Below, one piece after another: positions 2,722 to 29,300 of a DNA stretch of 32,518 nt. The stretch comes from a virus (lineage: Duplodnaviria; Caudoviricetes). The stretch spans positions 1 through 32,518 of IMG/VR virus record IMGVR_UViG_3300042392_001542; one strand, written 5' to 3'. A program made the position numbers and the translations under genes. The notes under the pieces were generated by a model that saw only the letters and a list, made by a program, of their open reading frames with translations, ran no database searches and had not been told where the DNA came from. Positions within the stretch are counted from its first letter, which is position 1. Every line of letters starts with the position of its first letter.

Positions 2722-3084
2722 GGGGTCGTAATGGTCTCGACGGGTAGTGATTAGTAGAAATGCATGCGGCGTGGTGCCTTAAAGCCAAAACAAGATAACT
2801 GACAACAGTTACATTCCTGCATATACGCCTTCAATGGCATATGCATTAGCTTAATTTAGAAGGAGCTATCTGGGCGAGTCCTCTCTGGTGGGACAAACCC
2901 TGAAAAGAAAGCCAGATATGAGAGTGCGGCTGAACTAGTCACGCTTAAAGAATAATAAGTTTGCTCATACTTTAATTTTGACTTTTTATTCAAAGTATGA
3001 TAAGATAATATAAGAAGCTAAGCATGTAGATGTTTTTATGGGATAGCTATTCGGACAGGGGTTCAATTCCCCTCGACTCCACCA
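2722..3084 (+). ncRNA. ssrA: transfer-messenger RNA (one-piece)
   Basis: 5' GGGGTCG pairs with 3' CGACTCC-ACCA including the G3:U alanine identity pair; T-arm AGGGG-TTCAATT-CCCCT; ATAACT|GAC resume context; tag reading frame 2801-2854 = (A)DNSYIPAYTPSMAYALA*. Confidence 0.95.
2978..3006 (+). promoter_or_regulatory. putative sigma-A promoter inside the tmRNA gene
   Basis: TTGACT(2978-2983)-17 bp-TAAGAT(3001-3006) with TG at 2998-2999, same architecture as the other promoters. Confidence 0.5.
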
Positions 3085-3125: not shown

Positions 3126-3374
3126 ATGAAAGCATTTGGATTATTTTTTACAGGTTTATTATTCACCGCGTTATTTACTGCGTTGCATATGAATTTATTA
3201 AATGATTTAATTCTTCAGTTACCCGATGTTGGTATTCCAGGAACAATATTAGTTCAAGAACTATTAAGGGATTGGATCGCAGAAGGTAATAGCATAACGG
3301 CACAGTTTATTAGTTTAGCCGCAATGCTCGTAGGATTATTCTCAATCAGAATAAAGAAAGAACAACAGTTCTAA
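3126..3374 (+). CDS. small 2-TM membrane protein
   Basis: GGAGG RBS; hydrophobic N- and C-terminal helices. Confidence 0.8.
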   Translation: MKAFGLFFTGLLFTALFTALHMNLLNDLILQLPDVGIPGTILVQELLRDWIAEGNSITAQFISLAAMLVGLFSIRIKKEQQF

Positions 3375-3385
3375 GGAGGACGGTT

Positions 3386-3661
3386 ATGGAAGAAAACAAA
3401 GTGGTGGTTGCACCAAAGAAAGAAAAAAAAGTTCCTACTAAAAAAGTAGCTAAAAATAAAGTAAAACCTACTATTCAAACAAACTTCGCAAGAGGATTTT
3501 TTGTTACAGGGTTACTAGGTATTGTATTTTTTAGCTTAGTACAAGCTGGTATTTTTACAACATTTTTAGGTAGTAACATTGATGAGTTTCTTTTAAACAC
3601 AGAGTTGCAAATTGCAATTACTATGTTTTTAGTAGGAGCTTTTTCATTTACTAAAAAATAA
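3386..3661 (+). CDS. small 2-TM membrane protein with Lys-rich N-terminus, probable paralogue of 3126-3374
   Basis: AAGGAGG RBS; shared FxTGLL and LVGxFSxxxK motifs. Confidence 0.8.
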   Translation: MEENKVVVAPKKEKKVPTKKVAKNKVKPTIQTNFARGFFVTGLLGIVFFSLVQAGIFTTFLGSNIDEFLLNTELQIAITMFLVGAFSFTKK

Positions 3662-3675
3662 AAGGAGGTCTAATT

Positions 3676-3984
3676 ATGGACTTAAAAAAACAAGACGAAG
3701 TAATTAAACTTAAAGAAGGTCAAAAAGTATTTGTTCCTAAAACAACATTTGCTTTTGATACAGAACTAATTGAAGTATTTAATGTATTTCAAGATGACGG
3801 AAGTGAGGCTGTCTTATTAGTAGATAAGAACGGTCACATTATTATGCGCGCAAGAGGAATGGTATTTGGTGATATTGAAATCGCCAAACAATACTATCTC
3901 AACTGGTTGCAAGTAATGCATGATAAGTTAGCGGATAGCTGGAAACCCGCCGAAGCACCAGCACCAACCACTGAAATTAAATAG
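3676..3984 (+). CDS. hypothetical protein (102 aa)
   Basis: AAGGAGGT RBS. Confidence 0.8.
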   Translation: MDLKKQDEVIKLKEGQKVFVPKTTFAFDTELIEVFNVFQDDGSEAVLLVDKNGHIIMRARGMVFGDIEIAKQYYLNWLQVMHDKLADSWKPAEAPAPTTEIK

Positions 3985-3996
3985 TGGTTCCAAAAT

Positions 3997-4025
3997 TTGT
4001 ATTTCGAATACGTATATGTTATAAT
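3997..4025 (+). promoter_or_regulatory. sigma-A promoter with extended -10, flanked by an inverted repeat
   Basis: TTGTAT(3997-4002)-17 bp-TATAAT(4020-4025), TG at 4017-4018; ATACGTATA/TATACGTAT at 4008-4016 and 4025-4033. Confidence 0.8.
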
Positions 4026-4031
4026 ATACGT

Positions 4032-4228
4032 ATAAGAAATGATTCTGGTGCGAAGACTCAAGGCGTAAGCCTATTAGTCATAAGAGTTTGAGTTCTCTCG
4101 ATAGAAGAGACAAACACGGAAAGCACTTAAGAGAAACCGCCAGAGATGGTTCCTACTGACATGGCTTTAGGAGCTATTAAAACGAGAGTCGTAAAGTCGT
4201 CCTCGAGGGTTAAAGTCCCTTCTTTTTT
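4032..4228 (+). ncRNA. unidentified structured ncRNA or cis-regulatory leader (~195 nt)
   Basis: Non-coding, GC-elevated, lies between a promoter and a terminator; nested stems 4044-4050/4138-4144, 4061-4072 (GUAA tetraloop), 4086-4115, 4146-4155/4168-4177. Confidence 0.65.
4205..4228 (+). terminator. intrinsic terminator
   Basis: GAGGG-TTAAAGT-CCCTT followed by CTTTTTT; same design as the terminator at 5991-6016. Confidence 0.65.
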
Positions 4229-4243
4229 ATAAAGAGGTATTGT

Positions 4244-4810
4244 ATGCTATTAATATTATGCGGCAAGACTGCCAGTGGTAAGAATACATATAGAGAAGTT
4301 TTAATGCAAAGAAATCCTTCTTGGCATAGAGCTGTCTCTCACACAACAAGACCAATGAGAAATGGTGAAAAAAATCACCTCCAGTATCATTTTCTTGAAA
4401 CTGTTTCATTTATTACAATGGCGATACAAAACTTCTTTATCGAAACAACAGATTACAGATTATCTGACTATACAGATGATAAATGGTATTACGGATTAAC
4501 CAAGTCTGAAGTTGATAATGATAAAATAAACTTAGCAATATTAAATCAAGATGGTGCAAAAAATGCTATTAAACATCTTGGCAAAAATAAAGTTAAGGTT
4601 ATTTACCTTCACAGTGATAGCGAAGAACTTCGCCGCAGAGGTCACAAAAGACTAGATGACCCAATTAGATTTGAAATGCGGCTAAGAGATGATGAGATAC
4701 AATTTGAAGATATAGAAAAAATAGCGGATTTAGTTCTTAAAACAGATTGCTCAAATGAGCAGCATGAGCTTAATTACCGCACAATAGAGAAACTATTGGA
4801 GGAAAATTAA
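4244..4810 (+). CDS. gmk: guanylate kinase-like nucleoside monophosphate kinase
   Basis: P-loop GKTASGKNT, signature VSHTTRPMRNGE, YHF and YYG motifs. Confidence 0.88.
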   Translation: MLLILCGKTASGKNTYREVLMQRNPSWHRAVSHTTRPMRNGEKNHLQYHFLETVSFITMAIQNFFIETTDYRLSDYTDDKWYYGLTKSEVDNDKINLAILNQDGAKNAIKHLGKNKVKVIYLHSDSEELRRRGHKRLDDPIRFEMRLRDDEIQFEDIEKIADLVLKTDCSNEQHELNYRTIEKLLEEN

Positions 4811-5163
4811 TGTTAAATTTTTTAAAGCAAAAATGGCTATTGATACTTTTATTAATTGGTGTTGTAGTTGGAACAGTTCTTGTAATAACATATCTTGAAC
4901 AAATTGAATTATTTATTAAACAAAACTGGTACGCATTTGCGTTTATGGTTATACCTGCATATTCAGCAGGTGTATTTACAAATTCATTTGTAATAAGAGC
5001 AATTATCACAAGTGCTAGAAAAACTGGTAAAGATAGTTTAGGTGTTAACTTCGGTGAATTAGCCGCAATTGATATAACAGACAAAACAAGAGACAGTTTA
5101 TGGTTCCATGCTATTGTTTTTATTCTATCCGCCGCCGCGATTACATTAATATTTGTTCTATAG
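4810..5163 (+). CDS. 3-TM membrane protein
   Basis: GGAGG RBS, TAATG coupling, three hydrophobic stretches. Confidence 0.78.
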   Translation: MLNFLKQKWLLILLLIGVVVGTVLVITYLEQIELFIKQNWYAFAFMVIPAYSAGVFTNSFVIRAIITSARKTGKDSLGVNFGELAAIDITDKTRDSLWFHAIVFILSAAAITLIFVL

Positions 5164-5176
5164 GAGGACACAATAA

Positions 5177-5437
5177 ATGCCAAGACGATATGATAAAACA
5201 GACTTAAGAGCAGAAGTTCAAATGGCTAAGATGAGTACAGATAAACTTCGTAAAGAATTAAATCTTAGAAAGCCATATGTTCAAGTTGCAGGGTGGTCAC
5301 AACCTTATGAAGTATTGGTAGCAAAATCAAAACCAGTAGTTATAAAAGTTGAAGAACCAAAACCAGCTAAAGCAGGAAGTCCAGCACCTTATAAACCTAA
5401 GCAGCAATTTAAGCCCGCATTTAAGAAGGCTTTCTAG
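5177..5437 (+). CDS. small basic hypothetical protein
   Basis: AGGAGG RBS; Lys/Pro-rich tail. Confidence 0.78.
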   Translation: MPRRYDKTDLRAEVQMAKMSTDKLRKELNLRKPYVQVAGWSQPYEVLVAKSKPVVIKVEEPKPAKAGSPAPYKPKQQFKPAFKKAF

Positions 5438-5440
5438 CTT

Positions 5441-6001
5441 ATGTTGATGTATTTAAAAAACATCAAACAACCTTATGTTTTAGTTGCTGACATAGAATAT
5501 GATAAAGACAATGTGCTTCAATGTGCAGGTCTCATATTTAAATTAGTAGACGAAAAAAATTACATATATCAGTTGGCAGTAAATTTCAACTGGTACATTA
5601 AAGTGCCGAGTGTAGACAAGTATGCGGTCAAGTATACTGGTCTTACAACAGAGTTCTTAAATGAGAATGGAATTAGCAAGGAAGAGTTTATAAAAACTTT
5701 CACGCAATTAATCTCAAACTATAATCCCGAAGATATGTTATTCGTATCTCATGGGGCGCAGAACGATCGATTAGTCTTGAAAAAATTTGGAGTAAACACA
5801 TTACCTCTCCATTCTTATTGTACATATAAGAATGCGCGCCGTATTTTAAACAGGGAAAGTATATTAACACTAGCGAATGTCGCTGAGGAGGCTGGTTATA
5901 AATTATTCGATGAGCACGATGCTCATTCTGATGCTATAGCTACCGCAGTTATATTTTCATTCCTGCAAAAAATCGAGAATAGCGAAAAACAAGAGGGGTA
6001 A
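5441..6001 (+). CDS. DEDDh 3'-5' exonuclease (DnaQ/RNase T superfamily)
   Basis: ExoI DIE, ExoII SHGAQND, ExoIII HDAHSD; the start may be the ATG at 5447. Confidence 0.8.
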   Translation: MLMYLKNIKQPYVLVADIEYDKDNVLQCAGLIFKLVDEKNYIYQLAVNFNWYIKVPSVDKYAVKYTGLTTEFLNENGISKEEFIKTFTQLISNYNPEDMLFVSHGAQNDRLVLKKFGVNTLPLHSYCTYKNARRILNRESILTLANVAEEAGYKLFDEHDAHSDAIATAVIFSFLQKIENSEKQEG

Positions 6002-6016
6002 ACACCCTTCTTTTTT
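5991..6016 (+). terminator. intrinsic terminator
   Basis: GAGGGGT-AAAC-ACCCTTC followed by TTTTTT. Confidence 0.8.
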
Positions 6017-11269: not shown

Positions 11270-12922
11270 ATGGCATTTGAATGGTTAAACAAAGAGTCGC
11301 GCAAGTTTTTGTCACGCGGCTACTTACTGGAAGGACAAACTCCAGAAGAAAGAATTAGACAAATCGCAAACAAGGCTGAGGAATATTTAGGTATTCCAGG
11401 CTATGCGGATAAATTTTATGACTATATGGGTAGAGGATTTTTCTCGCTGTCTTCACCAGTGTGGTCTAACTATGGAATACAAAGAGGATTGCCTGTATCG
11501 TGCTTCGGTTCTTACATTGAAGACGATATGCAATCTATCTTATATGGACATGCAGAGAATGGTATGCTTATGAAAGGTGGCGGTGGAACATCCGGCTACT
11601 TTGGTGAGTTACGTGGACGCGGAGCTCCAATTAAAAATAGTGGAGAATCCAGTGGCGCAGTTCATTTTATGAAAATGTATGACACTTTAGCTTCAGTTGT
11701 TTCCCAAGGTAGCGTGCGTAGAGGTTTCTTCAGTGCCTATTTACCTATTGAACATCCAGACGCAGAAGAGTTCTTAGATATTGGCACCGAAGGAAACCCT
11801 ATTCAGGGACTTACTCACGGTATCACAGTAACAGACGCTTTTTTAGAAAAGGTAAAAGCTGGCGATAAGGATGCAAGAAAGCTCTGGGCAAAAGTATTAC
11901 AGCGCAGAAGTGAAATTGGTTATCCATATATCTTATTTACAGACAATATGAATAAAAATAAACCTGATATTTATAAAGATAAAGATATGAAAATCTTTGC
12001 TAGTAATATGTGTTCTGAAATTGCATTGCCATCTAATCCAAATGAAACTTTTACTTGCGTATTATCTTCGATTAACTTACTTCACTGGGAAGAGATTAAA
12101 GAAACAGATGCAATTGAAACGCTTACTTATTTCTTAGATACAGTCGTCACAGAATTTATTAATAAAACAGAAGGTAAAGAATACCATAAGAGAGCAAGAA
12201 ACTTTGCTATCAATCATCGGGCCTTAGGTCTTGGTGTTCTTGGTTGGCACTCGTATTTGCAATCAAATATGCTTTCGTTTGAAAGTCGTAGTGCGGCTAA
12301 AAAGAATTTAGAGATTGCAAAAACTTTAAAAGAAAGAACTTATAAAGCTTCGACTGAACTAGCTGTAAAGTATGGAGAACCAGAACTATTAAAAGGTTAT
12401 GGTCGCCGCAACACAACGTTGATGGCTATTGCTCCTACAAAAAGCTCATCTTCAATCTTAGGTCAAGTATCTCAATCTATTGAGCCAGAGTTCTCTAACT
12501 TCTATGTGAAGGACTTGGCTAAATCTAAAACTACAATTAAAAATCAATACCTTAAAAAGTTATTGAAAAAATATGATAAGGACACTGACGAAATCTGGGA
12601 GTCTATTCAAAAAGCAGACGGCTCAGTACAACACTTAAAATTCATGACTCAAGAAGAGCGCGAGGTCTTTAAAACGTTTGCGGAAATTAATCCACATGCA
12701 ATTATTGACCAAGCTGCCGTGCGTCAAGAATATATCGACCAAGCCCAATCATTAAACCTTATGATGCCAGCAAACGTGCCTGTAAAAGAAATCAACGCAC
12801 TTATGCTTTACGCTCATGATATGGGTATCAAGACTTTATACTATCAATTTGGTATGAGTCAGGCGCAAGAACTTTCTCGTAAAAAAGTTATGAGTGAAGG
12901 CTGCGCTAGTTGCGAAGGTTAA
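11270..12922 (+). CDS. nrdA: class I ribonucleotide reductase alpha subunit, short form without ATP-cone
   Basis: VSCF, GGGTS, SNMCSEI (Asn-Cys-Glu), IAPT, TLYY, C-terminal CASC. Confidence 0.95.
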   Translation: MAFEWLNKESRKFLSRGYLLEGQTPEERIRQIANKAEEYLGIPGYADKFYDYMGRGFFSLSSPVWSNYGIQRGLPVSCFGSYIEDDMQSILYGHAENGMLMKGGGGTSGYFGELRGRGAPIKNSGESSGAVHFMKMYDTLASVVSQGSVRRGFFSAYLPIEHPDAEEFLDIGTEGNPIQGLTHGITVTDAFLEKVKAGDKDARKLWAKVLQRRSEIGYPYILFTDNMNKNKPDIYKDKDMKIFASNMCSEIALPSNPNETFTCVLSSINLLHWEEIKETDAIETLTYFLDTVVTEFINKTEGKEYHKRARNFAINHRALGLGVLGWHSYLQSNMLSFESRSAAKKNLEIAKTLKERTYKASTELAVKYGEPELLKGYGRRNTTLMAIAPTKSSSSILGQVSQSIEPEFSNFYVKDLAKSKTTIKNQYLKKLLKKYDKDTDEIWESIQKADGSVQHLKFMTQEEREVFKTFAEINPHAIIDQAAVRQEYIDQAQSLNLMMPANVPVKEINALMLYAHDMGIKTLYYQFGMSQAQELSRKKVMSEGCASCEG

Positions 12923-12923
12923 T

Positions 12924-13020
12924 TAATATTAAACACAGGTTTCTTGGAAAAGGAGGAGCTGGTTTAAAAATACAAAAACGCCCACTATTTCATCTTGGCG
13001 TTTTATGGAGGAATTCTATG
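12924..13020 (+). repeat. cassette leader element copy 1 (two hairpins + RBS + ATG)
   Basis: First 46 nt match copy 2 at 45/46; second hairpin AAAACGCC/GGCGTTTT; ATGGAGGAATT before the start codon. Confidence 0.92.
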
Positions 13021-14307
13021 AAAAATAAAAATCTATTTGCCTTTCTAGTGACACTAACTATGGTTTCGTGTGCGTCACCGTCCTCTTCCTCATCTGAGGG
13101 AGGAATATCGATACCAAATGATGTCCTCATGATGGCCCAAAACGAACCAAGTAGGATGTTTCTTTCGGCTCTGATGATGCCGACATCCTCGTCCAGGACT
13201 GAGACGGTTGCATCTGTTGACTCAAGGACAGTTAGTACTTGGTCAAACACTCTCGGTGACTGGAGCGCAGAATACACAGACATCTTCGACTTCGAGGCCT
13301 CTGGACTACTGAGGTCTGAGGGGTTCGGCACTGACCAGGCTAAGATTTACGCAGAGGTTGACCTAGTCAACTTCGATTCAGAAGTAATATACGATTCCGG
13401 ACCTCAGTATCAATCGTATAGAACAGCATTTGAAAACGAGAGAATCGTCGCCTATTATGACGGCTCAGAGGTATTTCTCGACCTAACGGACGCAGAAGGC
13501 TTCGCATTCGTTTTTGCTCACAGCGGAATCGCTCCCTCGTGGAGCTACTACTATAACTCAATAGAAGGCATCGATAGACCGTCAAAGCTCAGGTTCAACG
13601 CCAGGGAAATAATCGAGAGCGGTCTTCTACCCTTATTCCCAGGTCGCAACGACCAGCAGGTCTGTATAAAGATGTGCTTAGACGACCCAAGCACTGAAGA
13701 GATTGAGTGCAACTCACCTTGCGAAGAAGAACCGGAGCAGGAGCCGAGAGGTCCTCTAACTCAGGAAGAAATCGAGGCATTCGCAGCTTCAATTCTGCCG
13801 ATGTTCGATTATAATTTACTCCAGAGCGAGATATCTGGCACAAAGCTGTCGATAACCTACGAGGCTACTCAGGATGACCTTGTCCAAATGTTTGAGACGG
13901 GATACCTCGGTGGCTACAGCAGGGAAGACTTCGACGAAGAGTACCTCCAACAACTTGACCAGTGGGTAGCTGATGCCGTGGCTGGTTTTCAAATCAATAG
14001 GATGTTTGCATCGGTTTCAGTCGACCTTCTCACTAGCGTAGTAGAGAGCCTAACAATAGACATAGACGTGTCAACGGGCTACTCTTACGACGGGGAAATG
14101 TCGTTCTACAACCCGGAAAGTATTAATGCCGACGAGTTTGGCTTCGAACAGTACCCATATTCTTGGTCCTACTCGACAAGTTACGACATAGAAATATCTT
14201 TGGAAACTTCGGAGCTGTCAAATGAAATACCTATCGCCCTACCTGTAAATAAGGAAGAGTACGAACTCATCGAGCTCGGCCACCAACCTGAAGAAGTTTA
14301 CTATTAA
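13018..14307 (+). CDS. acidic lipoprotein of unknown function, probably horizontally acquired
   Basis: GGAGG RBS and ATG 13018; signal peptide with lipobox MVSC then a Ser-rich linker; sampled lines 42-53% G+C. Confidence 0.82.
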   Translation: MKNKNLFAFLVTLTMVSCASPSSSSSEGGISIPNDVLMMAQNEPSRMFLSALMMPTSSSRTETVASVDSRTVSTWSNTLGDWSAEYTDIFDFEASGLLRSEGFGTDQAKIYAEVDLVNFDSEVIYDSGPQYQSYRTAFENERIVAYYDGSEVFLDLTDAEGFAFVFAHSGIAPSWSYYYNSIEGIDRPSKLRFNAREIIESGLLPLFPGRNDQQVCIKMCLDDPSTEEIECNSPCEEEPEQEPRGPLTQEEIEAFAASILPMFDYNLLQSEISGTKLSITYEATQDDLVQMFETGYLGGYSREDFDEEYLQQLDQWVADAVAGFQINRMFASVSVDLLTSVVESLTIDIDVSTGYSYDGEMSFYNPESINADEFGFEQYPYSWSYSTSYDIEISLETSELSNEIPIALPVNKEEYELIELGHQPEEVYY

Positions 14308-14309
14308 AA

Positions 14310-14404
14310 TAATATTAAACACAGCTTTCTTGGAAAAGGAGGAGCTGGTTTAAAATATAGAAATGTCCACAATTCATCATAGACATTTCATGGAGGAATT
14401 GATG
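14310..14404 (+). repeat. cassette leader element copy 2 (two hairpins + RBS + ATG)
   Basis: Direct repeat of 12924-13020; second hairpin GAAATGTC/GACATTTC. Confidence 0.92.
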
Positions 14405-15499
14405 AAAAAACGATTATTAGCCGTTGCCTTGCCGTTATTAGTATTAGCCTCATGTGTAGGTATGGATATGAGCTCCTCAACAGGAAGTGAATCTTCAGAA
14501 CCAGGACCAGTTGGACTTATTCCTGAAACGCTTGTCGTTCAGTTTGTACCATCTACGTCTATTGACTCAGCTTTATTGACTAAAATTAAAGGTTTAGAAG
14601 ATATGCTAGAACTCGAATTAGAAGATGAAGGATTTGATATTAATGTAAATATTAGTATCGGTACTTCTTATGCCTCAGTTATTGAAGCAATGGCCTCAGG
14701 TCAAGTTCACGCAGGTTTCTTAACAGCTCAACAATATGCATTTGCAACAACAGAGTTTCCTGGCAAATTTGATGTCCAGTTAACTTCTGTACGCAGTGCC
14801 TATGCAGCTCAAATTGATGCGCAAGGAAATGAAATTAAAGATGTGGATACAATTATTGATAATGTAAACGATGCGGCTTACACAGCAGCATTACATCCAA
14901 CTGTAAAAGCTAGCTCTTACTATTCTGGTTTATATATTAAAGCAGATAAGTTAGCAGAATTTGAAGCACAAGGTATGGATTGGCTTATTGGTAAAAAAGT
15001 TGCAACACAAAGCAACACCTCAGGTTCTGGTTATTTATACCCATCATTTATGATGCATGAAAATGACTTGACATTTGTTGATGCAAATCCAAATGTTGCA
15101 AACCGTGAAGTTGAACGTAAAATTGTTGGTGGTCACCAAAACGCATTGTTAGCTTTACTTAATGGTGAAGTTGATGCAACATTTACATTCTTAGATGCTC
15201 GTCTACATGCAAGTGCTTTCAACGCTTGGTTAGAAGCAAACCCAGGTAAAACTCAATTTGCTGAAACTAAATTAGTTGGTTTAACTACTCCAATCTATAA
15301 CGATACAATTACTGCAATCGCTGGATTAAATCCTGAATTAAAGGCCGCAATCCAAGACGCATTTATCAATATCGTTGCTACAACTGATGGCGCAGCCGCA
15401 TTAGCAATTTATAACCATACCGGTTATTTAAAAGCTGTAGATGCTGACTATCAAGGTGAAAGAGATTTCTATCTCTTCTTACAAACCTTACAAGGCTAA
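14402..15499 (+). CDS. phnD: phosphate/phosphite/phosphonate ABC transporter substrate-binding lipoprotein
   Basis: Lipobox LASC; FVPS, SYASVIEAMASGQV, SNTSGSGYLYP, GGHQNALLALLNGEVDA, IYNDTI motifs; operon context. Confidence 0.88.
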   Translation: MKKRLLAVALPLLVLASCVGMDMSSSTGSESSEPGPVGLIPETLVVQFVPSTSIDSALLTKIKGLEDMLELELEDEGFDINVNISIGTSYASVIEAMASGQVHAGFLTAQQYAFATTEFPGKFDVQLTSVRSAYAAQIDAQGNEIKDVDTIIDNVNDAAYTAALHPTVKASSYYSGLYIKADKLAEFEAQGMDWLIGKKVATQSNTSGSGYLYPSFMMHENDLTFVDANPNVANREVERKIVGGHQNALLALLNGEVDATFTFLDARLHASAFNAWLEANPGKTQFAETKLVGLTTPIYNDTITAIAGLNPELKAAIQDAFINIVATTDGAAALAIYNHTGYLKAVDADYQGERDFYLFLQTLQG

Positions 15500-15519
15500 A
15501 AACACAAGGAGGTCATCAC

Positions 15520-16284
15520 ATGATTAAATTTGTAAATGTTTCAAAGACATACACAGGCGGAGTTCAGGCATTGAAAAACGTCAATATTCAAATCAGTGAT
15601 GGCGAATTTGTAGCCATAATCGGCCTGTCTGGAGCGGGGAAATCCACGCTCCTCAGGTCGATTAATAAAATGCAAACAATCACTAGTGGTGATATATTTA
15701 TAGACGAGGTAAATATATCTTCATTATCTGGTAAAAAATTAAGAGAGTTTAGAAGAAACATTGGAATGATATTTCAATCTTTTAATCTCGTAAAAAGAAT
15801 GTCAGTATTTAATAATGTTCTTACTGGAAGAGTTGCCTACCATCCAACAGTAAAAGCGCTTTTCGGTTTATTTCCAAAAGAGGATAAACTAATTGCACTT
15901 CAAGCATTGGAAACAATGGGTATATTAGAAAAAGCATTTGTTAGAGCAGATAAGCTTTCAGGTGGTCAACAACAAAGAGTTGCACTTGCTAGAGCCTTAA
16001 CTCAGAAACCTAAGATAATTTTAGCCGATGAGCCAGTGGCATCTCTTGACCCTATTACTACAATTCAAGTCATGGACGACTTTGCCCGCATCAATAAAGA
16101 TTTAGGTATTACTATTGTTGCAAATATGCATCACGTAGATTTAGCTTTAAAATACGCGACAAGAATAATTGGAATTAAAGCAGGAGAAATAGTTTATGAC
16201 GGTCCTTCTAAAAATATTAATCAAGATATACTTCTGAACATCTATGGAAGAGCTTTAAAACATAATGAGCTCCTGGGACAATAG
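15520..16284 (+). CDS. phnC: phosphonate ABC transporter ATP-binding protein
   Basis: GLSGAGKSTLLR, IGMIFQSFNLV, LSGGQQQRV, ILADEPVASLDP. Confidence 0.93.
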   Translation: MIKFVNVSKTYTGGVQALKNVNIQISDGEFVAIIGLSGAGKSTLLRSINKMQTITSGDIFIDEVNISSLSGKKLREFRRNIGMIFQSFNLVKRMSVFNNVLTGRVAYHPTVKALFGLFPKEDKLIALQALETMGILEKAFVRADKLSGGQQQRVALARALTQKPKIILADEPVASLDPITTIQVMDDFARINKDLGITIVANMHHVDLALKYATRIIGIKAGEIVYDGPSKNINQDILLNIYGRALKHNELLGQ

Positions 16285-16285
16285 T

Positions 16286-17095
16286 ATGATAAAATATATT
16301 TTACCAAGTGGCAAAACAATTAATCAACCATTTAATAAAGTATGGTATGTGCTTGCAGGTCTTGCGGCCATCTTATTGTTCTTTTGGACATTTATAAACT
16401 TTGACCCTAGAAACATTAACCTATCCGAAATGACTATCATTATAGAAAAACTATTTACACCAAAAGATACAAGAACCTGGGAAGATTATTTTAACTATAT
16501 GTTTTCATTATGGCCTGCTCTCTTTAGTACTTTACAAATGAGCTTTGCTGGAACTTTGATTGGTTCAGTATTTGCTGTTCCGGTAGCAATATTATCCTCA
16601 AAAAATATAGTTAAAAAAACTTACATATATACACCAGCGAGAATGCTAATGAACCTAATAAGAACAATACCTCTTTTGGTATTAGCGCTTCTTGCAGTCT
16701 TCTTTGTTGGAATTGGAATACTCCCAGGAATTATATCAATATCGGTATTTAGTTTTGGTATTATGTCAAAGATGTTATATGATATAATAGAAACGGTTGA
16801 CATGAGTTCTTTTGAAGCGCTTGAGTCAACTGGCGCAAATAAAACGATAGCATTTAGATATTCTGTTGTTCCGCAAATACTACCAATATATATTAGTTAT
16901 ATGATATACATATTTGAAATAAATGTGCGGTCCTCAGCAATACTTGGTTATGTTGGCGCTGGTGGAATAGGTTCAATTATAAAAGATAATGTTCTATACA
17001 ACTACGATAGAGTTGGAGCCGCAATAATATATCTGTTTTTTGCGATACTAATCATTCAGCTAATATCAAATTATGCTAGAGGTAAATTACAATGA
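16286..17095 (+). CDS. phnE: phosphonate ABC transporter permease
   Basis: Multi-TM; RTIP, EALESTGA, FEINVRSSAILGYVGAGGIG; ATG 16286 directly after the phnC stop. Confidence 0.9.
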   Translation: MIKYILPSGKTINQPFNKVWYVLAGLAAILLFFWTFINFDPRNINLSEMTIIIEKLFTPKDTRTWEDYFNYMFSLWPALFSTLQMSFAGTLIGSVFAVPVAILSSKNIVKKTYIYTPARMLMNLIRTIPLLVLALLAVFFVGIGILPGIISISVFSFGIMSKMLYDIIETVDMSSFEALESTGANKTIAFRYSVVPQILPIYISYMIYIFEINVRSSAILGYVGAGGIGSIIKDNVLYNYDRVGAAIIYLFFAILIIQLISNYARGKLQ

Positions 17096-17904
17096 CAATA
17101 GAAAAAGTATTGAAGAAAGAACCGAAGAGATGGTTGATAAACTCAATCTTTTTTATAGTCATTACAACTATGCTAATCTTTTCTTTTACAGACTCCTCAA
17201 TAAATTGGATTAGGTTTAATACATTTTGGATTTCTTTAAGAAGCATAGCAAGAGGATTATCAAATATACAATTCGATTTTTTGCTAGGTCGAGGCGTTTA
17301 CGCATTTGAAGAGGGTGTCATATATCTAACAATAGAGACTTTGGCAATAGCATTTATCGCTACATTTTTAGGCGCAATACTTTCACTACCATTTAGTTTT
17401 TTAGCAAGTAAAAATATAGTTGGAAATAAGATTGCACGGTTTGGAGAAATACTTTTAATTTTAGTTAGGGTGTTTCCTGAAATAATACTTGCATTAATAC
17501 TTGTAAAAGGATTTGGAATAAATCCCTTAACCGGTGTTTTAGCAATAGGAATACACTCAATAGGTATGATAGGTAAACTATTTGCAGAGTCAATTGATAA
17601 CATGGACAAAGCCCCATTAGAAGCACTTGATGCAGTCGGTGCAAATATATGGGTTAAAATTAGATACGGGATTATGCCGCAAGTAATAGCAGAGTTTTCT
17701 TCTATTGCGCTTTATAGATTAGACATCAACGTTCGCTCAGCTACCGTGTTAGGTATAATTGGTGCGGGAGGAATTGGTGCTTCACTAATTCTTGCCAGCG
17801 AAAACTGGAACTGGGATATACTTGGAACTATACTATTAGCAATAGTGGTTATGGTTATATCAGTAGACGTAATATCTAGCTTCTTAAGGAATAAGTTAAT
17901 TTAA
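17092..17904 (+). CDS. phnE: phosphonate ABC transporter permease (second subunit)
   Basis: RVFPE, GKLFAE, EALDAVGA, LDINVRSATVLGIIGAGGIG; ATGA overlap. Confidence 0.9.
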   Translation: MTIEKVLKKEPKRWLINSIFFIVITTMLIFSFTDSSINWIRFNTFWISLRSIARGLSNIQFDFLLGRGVYAFEEGVIYLTIETLAIAFIATFLGAILSLPFSFLASKNIVGNKIARFGEILLILVRVFPEIILALILVKGFGINPLTGVLAIGIHSIGMIGKLFAESIDNMDKAPLEALDAVGANIWVKIRYGIMPQVIAEFSSIALYRLDINVRSATVLGIIGAGGIGASLILASENWNWDILGTILLAIVVMVISVDVISSFLRNKLI

Positions 17905-21298: not shown

Positions 21299-22885
21299 GT
21301 GGTCGTGTCAAAAGCACTATTCGACAGAAATGCGGCCATGATGATTATCGCTGGGTTAATTAAAAATCCGGAGCTAGTCCATGACCAAGAAAATTTCAAA
21401 CTCACAACTAACGATTTTGATAATGAATTTTACAAAATAGTTTTTGGTGCAATCGCTAATATTGCGGCTGAAGGTTCACAAAACATTTCACCGCAAGATA
21501 TTGACCTTTACATTGGTCAATTTAATAAACAATATGAAGTATTTAAATCTGCTGGTGGATATGAATATCTTAGAGGGCTTCAACCCTTTATTGATAGTAT
21601 GGACTCTAGTAAGTTTAATTTTTACTATGAAAGATTAAAAAAGTTTACCGTTTTAAGAGACTTGCAAAAAGCAGGTATTGAAACCAAAGAATTCTATAAT
21701 CCAGAAGTAGACTTTATGCACCTTGACAAAGAAAGCGAAAAGCTTAACAACATTACAGTTGATGACATTGTCAAGACTATTTTAAAGAAAGTTAATAAGG
21801 TAGAAGATAGTTTCGTATCACGAGCTATTACTACAACTCAAAAGGCCGCATTAGGCATTCTTGAATTATATCAAGAATTAAAAGAAAGACCAGAAGTTGG
21901 TAAACCACTTGAAGGCGATATTTTCAATTACATTGTGCGCGGAGCTCGCTTCGGTAAAATGTATATAAATAGCGCTCCATCAGGTCACGGTAAAACTCGC
22001 TTCATGGTTGGCAATGCTTGTGCGATTTCACTACCAAGAATTGAAGGGGATAAAGTTGTCATTAGAGATGACTTAGCTCCTGTTTTGTTTGTAACTACAG
22101 AGCAACAAGCTGATGAAATACAAACACTAATTCTTGCTTATGTTAGTGGTGTTAATGAAAGAAAAATATTATATGGAAATGCTAATTTTGAAGAAGAGCA
22201 AAGGATATTACAAGCTATACAGTTAATTAAAAAATATGAAAATAACTTTATTATTGAAGTAATACCAGACCCTTCTATTGCATTAATTAGAGCTAAAATA
22301 ATTAAGCACATATTTCAAAATCATGTGCAGTTTATATTTTATGATTATATCTTTACCAGTCCTAGTTTACTTGTTGAATATCAACAAAGCAAGATTCGTG
22401 AAGACGTTGCACTTATGATGTTGTCAAATACATTAAAAGAAATTGCGGCACAATACGATGTCTTCGTTCAGTCAGCAACTCAGTTAAATGAGCGCTGGGA
22501 GCAAACTATGATTAGAAATGTTAACCATATTCGCGGTAGTAAGGCTATTGCTGATAAGGCTGACGTAGGTATGATTACAGTAAAACTTGAAGAAGTTCCT
22601 GAAGAAAAAGAAATCGTAGAACAATTATGTAAACACGCTGGTATTGAAATACCGAATGTGGTTACTGATATTTATAAAAATCGTCGTGGTGAACTAACTA
22701 GCGTAAAGCTATTTAGATACTTCGATTACGGTACTTGTAGAACACGAGACTTGTTCTTAACCGGTCTCAATCACAATATACTTAAAAACTATGATAAGAT
22801 TGAATACGATACAAAAGAATTTGACCTATTAGACATTATGACTCAACCTAAGAAAGATGGTGATGACGATGGCGAAATCAATTAG
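21299..22885 (+). CDS. dnaB: DnaB-like replicative helicase
   Basis: Walker A APSGHGKT, VTTEQ, FYDYI, SATQLN, IRGSKAIADKAD, KNRRG; GTG start after GAGGTG. Confidence 0.9.
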   Translation: MVVSKALFDRNAAMMIIAGLIKNPELVHDQENFKLTTNDFDNEFYKIVFGAIANIAAEGSQNISPQDIDLYIGQFNKQYEVFKSAGGYEYLRGLQPFIDSMDSSKFNFYYERLKKFTVLRDLQKAGIETKEFYNPEVDFMHLDKESEKLNNITVDDIVKTILKKVNKVEDSFVSRAITTTQKAALGILELYQELKERPEVGKPLEGDIFNYIVRGARFGKMYINSAPSGHGKTRFMVGNACAISLPRIEGDKVVIRDDLAPVLFVTTEQQADEIQTLILAYVSGVNERKILYGNANFEEEQRILQAIQLIKKYENNFIIEVIPDPSIALIRAKIIKHIFQNHVQFIFYDYIFTSPSLLVEYQQSKIREDVALMMLSNTLKEIAAQYDVFVQSATQLNERWEQTMIRNVNHIRGSKAIADKADVGMITVKLEEVPEEKEIVEQLCKHAGIEIPNVVTDIYKNRRGELTSVKLFRYFDYGTCRTRDLFLTGLNHNILKNYDKIEYDTKEFDLLDIMTQPKKDGDDDGEIN

Positions 22886-26303: not shown

Positions 26304-29300
26304 ATGTCAGAAAACAAATACTCAAGTTTGCACGCACATTCCGACTATTCAAATCTCAAAGTTATTGATAGTATCAATAAAGTTGGCGATTTAATAGACG
26401 GTGCTTTCAACAAGGGCTTACATGCCATTGCGTTAACTGACCATGATACATTATCTGGTCACGTAAAAGCAGTTCAACATTTTAAGTCTAAGTATTTAGA
26501 CAAACCTTTTAAGCTTATCTTGGGAAACGAAATCTATCTTACAAGAGAAGGTTTAAATTCTGAGAACTATGAAAAAGGCGAAAAGTTTTATCATGTTCTT
26601 TTGCTTGCAAAAGATGCAGAAGGACATGAACAACTTCGCAAACTTTCATCGCGTGCTTGGTCACGCTCTTTTATTCGTGGTGTAATGAGAACGCCAACGT
26701 ATGGAAGCGATTTAAAAGAAGTCATTGGTTCAAACCCGGGACATCTTATCACAACAACAGCCTGCTTAGGTGGTGTAACCGGCAGTCTGTTTATTTCCTA
26801 TGGTGCGGCAGCTTTGGACGATATTGCTGCTCACTTAGAAAAGATGGGTCAACTCTTCGGTAAAGATAATTTCTTTATCGAAGTGCAGCCATCTATGGAC
26901 GAACAACAAATAGCTTATAATAAGTTCATGGTTGATAACTTCTGGGGTAAATACCCTTTTGTTTTTACCACGGACGCGCATTACTTAAACGAAGAAGATA
27001 AAGATTTACATGCTCAGTTTCTTAGCTCAGCATCTAATGGCGATAGAGACGCGGAAAACTTTTATGCGTCTGCTTTTGTCATGTCCGTACAACAAATCTT
27101 TGAACGTCTTAATTATTTTTCAGAAGATAAGCTTGAAGAGATGCGGCTAAATACTATTCGTATTGCTGACTCTGTTCAAACCTATGACTTAAAAAGTCCT
27201 CAAGTTGTTCCTACAGTTCCAGTTTTAATCACTAAAGACATAGAAAATAAACTAAGTGAATTAAGACTGCAAATCCCCACTAAATATAAATACATTCATA
27301 ATTATCTAAATGCTACAGAAACTCAAGACTTATTTTTTATATATAAAATATTTGAAGGCTTCGTCGCAAAGATAAATGTTTTCAATGAAGAATACCTACA
27401 ACGCTTTAACGATGAGTTAGAACAGGTTTGGGAAACTTCTATTACAATCAAACAACCATTATCTAAATACTTTGTTACGATGGCTAAAATGATTGACATC
27501 ATATGGGATGAAGGAGACTCTCTTTTAGGGGTTTCCCGTGGCTCTGCTGCCGGTTTCTTACTTAACTACTGTTTAGGTATTACCCAACTAGATCCGCTTC
27601 GCCAAGAGCTTATAATGCCCTATTGGCGCTTCATTCATAAAGATCGCCCAGAACTTCCTGATATTGATATTGATACTGAAGGCAGCAAACGAACACGAGT
27701 TTTTAATAAAGTAAAAGAATACTTTAACTCAATAGGTGGTGACGTTATTAACGTTTGCACCTTCGGTACTGAAAAATCTAAGTCAGCTATCCGTACTGCG
27801 GGTCGCGCACTTAACGTTGATGATGATGTTATATCATTTATCGTTTCAATGATTCCAAACGAAAGAGGCTTTGACTGGACTCTTGACCAATGTATGTATG
27901 GAGATGAAGACCATAAAGCAATTGCTAAGTTTCAAGAAGAAATGGGTAGAGAAAAATCCTTATGGAAACTCGCCTATAGTATTGAAGGACTTATTACTCG
28001 TTTAGGTGTTCACGCTTCTGGCGTTATCGCATTTAATGAAGACTTTACAAAACACAACTCGTTAATGAAAACTAGTCGTGGTGTTTTAGTATCTGCTTAT
28101 AATTTAGAAGATACTGAATACGCTGGTGGTTTAAAGTACGACTTTTTAACCATTAACGCATTAGATAAACTTCGCACAACAATGAACCTTCTTTTAGAAG
28201 ATGGTAAAATTCAATGGCAAGGAAATCTTAAAACTACTTACGACAAATATTTACTACCAAAAGAATTAGAATATAAAGATCCCAATATGTGGGCTATGGC
28301 TGGTCGCGGTGAAATTGTTGATTTATTTCAGTTCGACACAAGCGTTGGTTCACAAGCAATGCGGTCAATTAAGCCGCAATCTATTTCGCAACTTGCTATC
28401 GCAAACTCTTTAATGAGGCTTATGGCGCAGGATGAAAACGCTGAGTTACCACTTAATACTTATGTTAAGTTTAAAAACTCAGAAGTTATGTGGTATAGAG
28501 AATTAGAAAATAGCGGCATCAATAGTGATGAAGTTAAGATACTTGAAAAATATCTTAAACCATTATCTGGAGTTGCAGACTCTCAAGAATCAATCATGAT
28601 GATTGTTATGGACCCAAAGATTACAAACTTTTCTGTTGTTGAAGCTAACGGTCTTCGTAAAGCTATCGCTAAAAAGAAGTTTGATACCATCGATAAAATT
28701 AAAAAGATGTTCTATGAAAAAGGAAAAGAAATAGGCACAAGAAAGAAACTTCTAGATTATGTCTGGAGTGTTCAAGTTATGCGGCAAGCTGGTTACTCAT
28801 TTAGTGTTTTACACACGATGGGTTATTCGACTATCGCTTTACAAGAAATGAATATGGCCTACAAATTCCCCGTCATTTATTGGAATACTGCTTGCTTGTC
28901 TGTAAACGCAGGTGCGGTTAATGAAGAAGATTACGAAGACCTTATAGAAGAAGGTATCGTAGAAATTGAAGAAGACGATGAAAATAAACGTGAAGCAAAT
29001 AAAGTTCAATATGGTAAGGTCGCCGCAGCAATCGGTAAATTTAAAACTGAACTCGGCATGAAGATTGAGTTGCCAGATGTTAATCGCGCAAAGTTTGGAT
29101 TTACTCCAGACTCAGAAGCGAACGTTGTTTGGTTTGGTTTAAAAGGTATTTCCAGAATTGGTGATGACTTAATTAGAGAAATCATTAATAATCGTCCGTA
29201 TACTTCTGTTGATAACTTTATTGAGAAGTTAAATAAAACAGGAGCGAGAACTTTAGTAAGCAAAGATAGAATTATATCTTTAATCAAATCTGGCGCGTTT

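Follow-up and report, generated by a model that had tools for sequence, protein, structure and literature searches.

Just upstream of a guanylate kinase gene (gmk), the phage DNA analysed here carries what is, by sequence comparison, a structured and conserved RNA element: a new motif of narrow range, which belongs to no catalogued family and which, in the searches made, was found in one phage clade only. We read it tentatively, at a probability of roughly 0.4, as a transcription attenuator that would set the read-through into the gmk operon; an RNA that acts in trans and whose terminator leaks comes close behind in likelihood, and accounts for these data almost equally well. The window, i.e. 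the whole stretch analysed, is a 32.5-kb virus record (32,518 nt) with an estimated completeness of 26%, and gmk is the first of four genes of an operon (4244-6001, plus strand) closed by a strong terminator.

The element, about 190 nt long, lies in a gap of 259 nt (3985-4243), the largest internal one of the window after the tmRNA gap, and its GC content is elevated (0.447 in 4043-4221 vs 0.344 in the window), both as originally noted. All the stems and repeats that had been claimed can be read in the window at the positions given for them; the 10-bp stem 4146-4155/4168-4177 even reaches 11 bp, as 4145-4155/4168-4178. Single-sequence and alignment folding give the same helices for the 5' domain (Table 1). 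Taken alone, the window copy has an unremarkable folding energy (z -1.39; 16 of 200 shuffles as good), and those of two homologues, L013 and L015, reach z -2.5 and -3.1; as the window copy folds little better than its shuffles, the case for the element rests on comparison.

Table 1. Features of the gmk locus and partners of loop L4 (positions of the window)
Feature	Positions	Strand	Description
tmRNA gene	2722..3084	+	RF00023, 133.7 bits, also called by ARAGORN; about 950 nt 5' of the element
Predicted promoter	3997..4025	+	-35 at 3997-4002, 17-nt spacer, extended -10 at 4017-4025; predicted start near 4032
Inverted repeat around the -10 element	4008..4033		9 pairs kept throughout the rows, both bases being changed in 2 of them
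5' domain	4044..4144	+	P1 closing stem 4044-4050/4138-4144, P2 hairpin 4055-4079, P3 hairpin 4086-4115, purine-rich 22-nt strand 4116-4137
P4 hairpin	4145..4178	+	11 bp; 12-nt loop L4 (4156-4167), putative switching strand
P5 hairpin	4183..4205	+	5' side 4186-4192 can alternatively pair with L4 (7-bp pseudoknot); loop repeats the terminator-loop sequence
Predicted weak intrinsic terminator	4205..4228	+	5-bp stem, 7-nt loop, U tract; G4205 common to P5
Ribosome-binding site and gmk start	4229..4246	+	can pair with terminator 3' side and U tract; hairpin -4.5 to -5.4 kcal/mol
Guanylate kinase family gene (gmk)	4244..4810	+	PF00625, E 4e-11; phrog_1815
L4 partner 1, purine-rich strand	4120-4124		5 bp; kept in 6/6 fully covered rows
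L4 partner 2, P5 arm	4186-4192		7-bp pseudoknot; mismatch gained in two RNA-contig variants (U4162A)
L4 partner 3, P5 loop	4193-4198		6 bp; kept in 8/8 rows
L4 partner 4, terminator loop	4163-4170/4210-4217		8 bp; kept in 6/6 covering rows

Protein-anchored scans yielded five sequences, those of the window, L002, L006, L013 (same as L014) and L015, and contigs of RNA libraries (depth 3-11) added three further variants. Over 4043-4221 the identity to the window is 91-98%: 176/179 for L002 and for L006, which are identical to each other in this interval, 164/179 for L013 and 163/179 for L015. The gmk gene is 80-96% identical in the three complete cases (544/567, 470/567 and 452/567) and the tmRNA gene gives 363/363, 327/363 and 269/363 in three near-complete ones; compared directly, element and tmRNA show 98 vs 90% identity in L018 and 91 vs 74% in L015. 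The element is thus better conserved than the adjacent genes, and more tightly so than the tmRNA of the phage itself.

The changes that do occur respect the predicted helices. Homologues and RNA-contig variants together hold 25 distinct substitutions, 14 of them in stems, and none of these 14 breaks a pair; random placement would break about 9.6 pairs and never reached zero in 20,000 trials, a comparison in which the helices derive from the same sequences as those counted, the window alone predicting nearly the same set. Three pairs are changed on both sides, 4064/4069 in P2 and, in P4, 4154/4169 (in L015 and one X1 contig) and 4152/4171 (in that same X1 contig), and at 4189/4200 a mismatch becomes a pair. 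P1 is without covariation because it never varies. The claim of a structured RNA is therefore borne out; of the check proposed with it, homologues and covariation, the first half succeeds, the structure being conserved in close relatives, but the covariation score of the five DNA rows alone is not beyond that of shuffles (41 of 500 as good).

That the element belongs to no known family, as had been claimed, agrees with Rfam 15: at the gathering threshold the window gives the tmRNA alone, with sub-threshold matches only at E<=10 for the element, and L013 and L015 likewise give only the tmRNA. BLAST against annotated phages and plasmids found no distant homologue, an exact 27-base pattern had 0 matches in species genomes, and two gapped patterns run over viral contigs, with 48 of 51 and 17 of 20 matches outside the clade, gave no convincing homologue. 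The model R1 met no matching leader at 77 other phage gmk loci, and no homologue either in virus records (5 + 42 + 38) or in 151 + 151 genomes chosen around G006, a genome of the candidate host lineage. As R1 was built on five close sequences and many records are fragments, distant homologues are to be considered as not found rather than absent. The apparent homologues in L159, L342 and L352 were rejected, lying wholly or partly inside reading frames. 6S RNA is a long rod with paired ends and a central bubble; it was rejected too, the predicted and consensus folds of the element being multi-branched with separate 3' hairpins, and RF00013 giving no match. G006 itself, possibly incomplete, has no 6S RNA match at E<=10, and its RNase P RNA is found. 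Among the listings returned by literature searches no description of the element appeared; in supplementary files 3-6 of PMC10690425 its 19-base core and three contig numbers are unmatched, and the alignment archives of that work may hold the motif.

The original prediction gave the element its own promoter and terminator, and both are indeed predicted, by different means: the promoter by a matrix trained on 5 intergenic promoters elsewhere in the window, the terminator by a generic sigma-70 scan that did list it but missed the promoter at 4017. With the matrix this site ranks 7th among 32,458 positions and second among those outside the training set, and its -10 element is invariant in 5/5 homologues. 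The inverted repeat around it is a possible operator; in the distant phage record L023 a promoter palindrome also precedes gmk, just 5' of 5001. On the other strand, a promoter-like site at 4266-4239 was discarded, its final -10 base being lost in L015. A strong promoter-like site (2978-3006, rank 8 of 32,458) also occurs within the tmRNA gene, and could drive the genes 3' of it.

Several properties of the region between promoter and gmk argue for attenuation. The predicted terminator stands between the predicted promoter and the first gene, and is about half as stable (-5.1 to -6.7 kcal/mol) as the operon-closing one at 5991-6012 and its L018 homologue (-11). Downstream of the site at 4017, which scores 19.0, the best promoter score is -10.3 in 4036-4235 and 0.2 in 4236-5990; as nothing promoter-like exists in 4036-5990, the four genes from gmk to 6001 likely need transcripts passing 4228. 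Such transcripts might be those seen in RNA libraries, since in 7/7 RNA runs examined, from 3 studies (8 runs listed), contigs bridge 4228 into gmk with at least 31 bases on each side. In these 7 runs no contig stops at the terminator, but ends, strand and level cannot be read from contigs; two of the runs cover the 5' domain. The libraries with this region carry the labels lake water, wetland or plain metagenome and may contain DNA; two contigs start 5' of the predicted start, so that upstream read-through or DNA contributes. Short RNAs are often lost during library preparation. The conservation continues through the ribosome-binding site, the gmk start region being identical at 39 of 40 bases in L018, the top of 14 start regions compared (the next at 38 and 37). 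Hairpins resembling the one at 4205, sharing a G-rich stem and an A-rich loop followed by a U tract, are also found at 5991-6012, at 26944-26957—within the polymerase gene—and at 10723-10743 of L018; they possibly represent a phage-specific terminator design or a protein-binding site.

The anatomy also offers a candidate for the moving part. L4 has four mutually exclusive partners (Table 1), among which the claimed pairing of 4163-4168 with both copies of its complement (4193-4198 and 4212-4217) is kept in every covering row; the other claimed pseudoknot, 4095-4100/4183-4188, is readable in the window, but only 4 of its 6 pairs survive in L013 and in L015, i.e. in 2/5 homologues. P5 and the rival 7-bp pseudoknot gain strength together, by 4-6 kcal/mol: P5 goes from -5.6 in the window to -9.6 in L013 and -11.7 in L015, and the duplex of L4 with the P5 arm from -6.2 to -10.7 in both. 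The changes being common to L013 and L015, this co-strengthening may reflect a single event. The loop-loop pairings never change on both sides and are thus without covariation support; the same holds for the 8-bp alternative fold with the terminator loop, which is conserved with no double-sided change. As the other terminators of the phage have similar loops, the match of L4 with the terminator loop may even be due to chance.

If the element is an attenuator, L4 would be the switching strand, passed between its partners. Bound to 4120-4124, to the P5 loop or to the P5 arm, it would leave the terminator free to close; bound to the terminator loop through the 8 bp that extend into the stem, it would make termination fail, and so would P5 by taking G4205. 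The 5' domain would then act as the sensor, and a phage or host protein is a likelier trigger than a metabolite, because the RNA is found in this clade only. Should the trigger be a metabolite, our guess would be a guanine nucleotide. A bolder version, which we consider rather unlikely, is a riboswitch class native to phages: a 100-nt multi-helix sensor of (p)ppGpp or GTP would hand L4 among its four partners, the terminator loop last, and so tune the nucleotide supply of the phage to the stringent state of its host.

Some observations fit an attenuator less well. The U4162A change of two RNA contigs weakens the pseudoknot, no long antiterminator is present, and a matching leader was met at none of 77 gmk loci from other phages; the single gene context makes synteny uninformative on cis action. 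A conservation exceeding that of tmRNA over the whole length is more than a simple switch needs, and it rather suits a stand-alone non-coding RNA gene acting in trans, as protein scaffold or decoy or as antisense RNA through L4, and feeding gmk by a leaky terminator. This second reading, hardly less plausible to us, accounts for the predicted promoter and terminator, and the phage does have other RNA genes, a tmRNA and six tRNAs. It might even have a target in the DnaB-like helicase gene, whose start region (21301-21310) could form 10 base pairs with L4 at -14.1 kcal/mol; a 9-base core of this match is unchanged in 8/8 close loci (L280-L287). Over 41 start regions 20 of 500 shuffles do as well, and since L4 was one of six segments tried the match is not significant after correction; furthermore U4162A would introduce a mismatch into this pairing too. 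No target beats shuffles for the purine-rich 22-nt strand. The RNA contigs weigh weakly against a separate transcript, none ending at the terminator and the 5' domain being so seldom covered. The helicase start region itself has the most GC-rich spacer among those compared and a likely GTG start near 21307.

The remaining readings are related to known RNAs. The likeness to tRNA is the most persistent one to any known family, yet it is confined to the last hairpin. One could imagine that a new 5' domain became fused to part of a serine tRNA, its variable arm and T arm giving the last two hairpins: 3' halves of tRNA-Ser or tRNA-Ile make up most of the weak R1 matches inspected, few shuffles equal the best local alignment with any of 44 tRNAs (3, 0 and 0 of 300 as good), and the last loop differs by one base from a T loop among the tRNAs compared. 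This descent nevertheless seems improbable. The signal is gone without the last hairpin (93, 21 and 16 of 200 shuffles as good), several of the compared tRNAs had been chosen by R1 itself, T-loop position 56 is an A, the anticodon arm is absent, and a tRNA-Ser T arm is likewise the best alignment for another of the phage's terminators. A complete tRNA-like cloverleaf was rejected, ARAGORN calling none at its 80-90% threshold and giving calls only at 70%, with inconsistent anticodons. We give even less credit to a ribozyme, whether self-cleaving or left over from a permuted RNase P core, despite the very high conservation and a series of short motifs in the 3' half that follow one another much as in the P2-P3-P4 core of L157's RNase P RNA. 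No Rfam ribozyme matches, and the RNA contigs display neither joints nor common ends, though contigs cannot show ends; on a permuted profile made with 48 of the 56 RNase P RNAs fetched, 315 of 2000 shuffles score as well as the element, and on a hand-picked core 46 of 2000. A native type B RNase P RNA was discarded as well, its profile around P4 being equalled by 733 of 2000 shuffles. Among the three possibilities initially advanced—new sRNA, ribozyme or ligand-responsive attenuator—the attenuator fits the anatomy, by the weak terminator, the promoterless gmk operon and the contigs across the terminator, the sRNA stays nearly as plausible, and nothing supports the ribozyme. Just as doubtful is a remote relative of the purine riboswitch that would have retained its loop-loop module. 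The loops 4158-4164 and 4189-4195, at near-correct spacing, score 11.8-12.6 bits with L2 and L3 matrices from 28 of 30 fetched members, against 13.7-25.6 in the members, with 19 and 9 of 2000 shuffles as good, and the downstream gene acts on guanine nucleotides. RF00167 finds nothing, though, and the ligand-binding strand J2/3 scores -5.8 bits vs 11.8-15.1 in true members; this family, moreover, was picked after several others had been tried.

The phage that carries the element also codes, in the window, for ribonucleotide reductase, ligase, DnaB-like helicase, primase and DNA polymerase III alpha. Compared with the helicases of SPbeta-like Bacillus phages, its own shows about 32% identity; the sole lead to the host is one transporter protein with a 45% match to a protein of a Bacillales MAG. 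An overlapping record (L336, 1317-9707) represents the upstream part of the same phage, with the six tRNAs, SHMT, ThyX, a family 4 glycosyltransferase and a metallophosphoesterase. Within the replication region, 12910-17904 holds a lipoprotein-like gene of higher GC content, together with a complete operon for an ABC transporter of the phosphonate type. Near the element, two small hydrophobic genes 3' of the tmRNA (3126-3661) diverge far faster than their neighbours (55-70% in most homologues), function searches gave nothing usable for the 102-aa protein encoded upstream (3676-3984), and a small basic 86-aa protein of the gmk operon (5177-5437), with no family in our searches, is a candidate RNA binder.

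Compared with known systems, the 3' end of the element recalls the 3' half of tRNA-Ser by its 5-bp stem and 7-nt loop after a hairpin the size of a variable arm; it differs by the absence of an anticodon arm and of CCA, by the changed position 56, and by the U tract that follows, as in the other terminators of the phage. With the purine riboswitch it shares a gene of purine metabolism downstream and possibly two similarly spaced loops resembling L2 and L3, without J2/3, without a three-way junction around these hairpins and without a match to the model. In being a predicted structured RNA of viral contigs it is like the candidates of Fremin et al. 2023 (PMC10690425). Another close system is the guanidine-IV riboswitch (GGAM-1 motif), from which it differs by about twice the length, an additional multi-helix 5' domain, several rival loop partners, no Rfam match, a position before gmk rather than a guanidine exporter and a range of one phage clade, so that it does not count as a member. 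The common point is a hairpin loop that lies upstream of an intrinsic terminator, itself in front of a gene, and has a sequence complementary to the terminator's loop; in guanidine-IV this pairing is proposed to destabilise the terminator and so to allow read-through (PMC7736828, PMC10907184). Short enough for in vitro testing in a single experimental round, the element would, if acting in trans, be a new phage RNA gene alongside tmRNA and tRNAs; if a switch, it would provide phage-specific control of nucleotide metabolism by loop-terminator pairing, a route so far proposed for guanidine-IV riboswitches.
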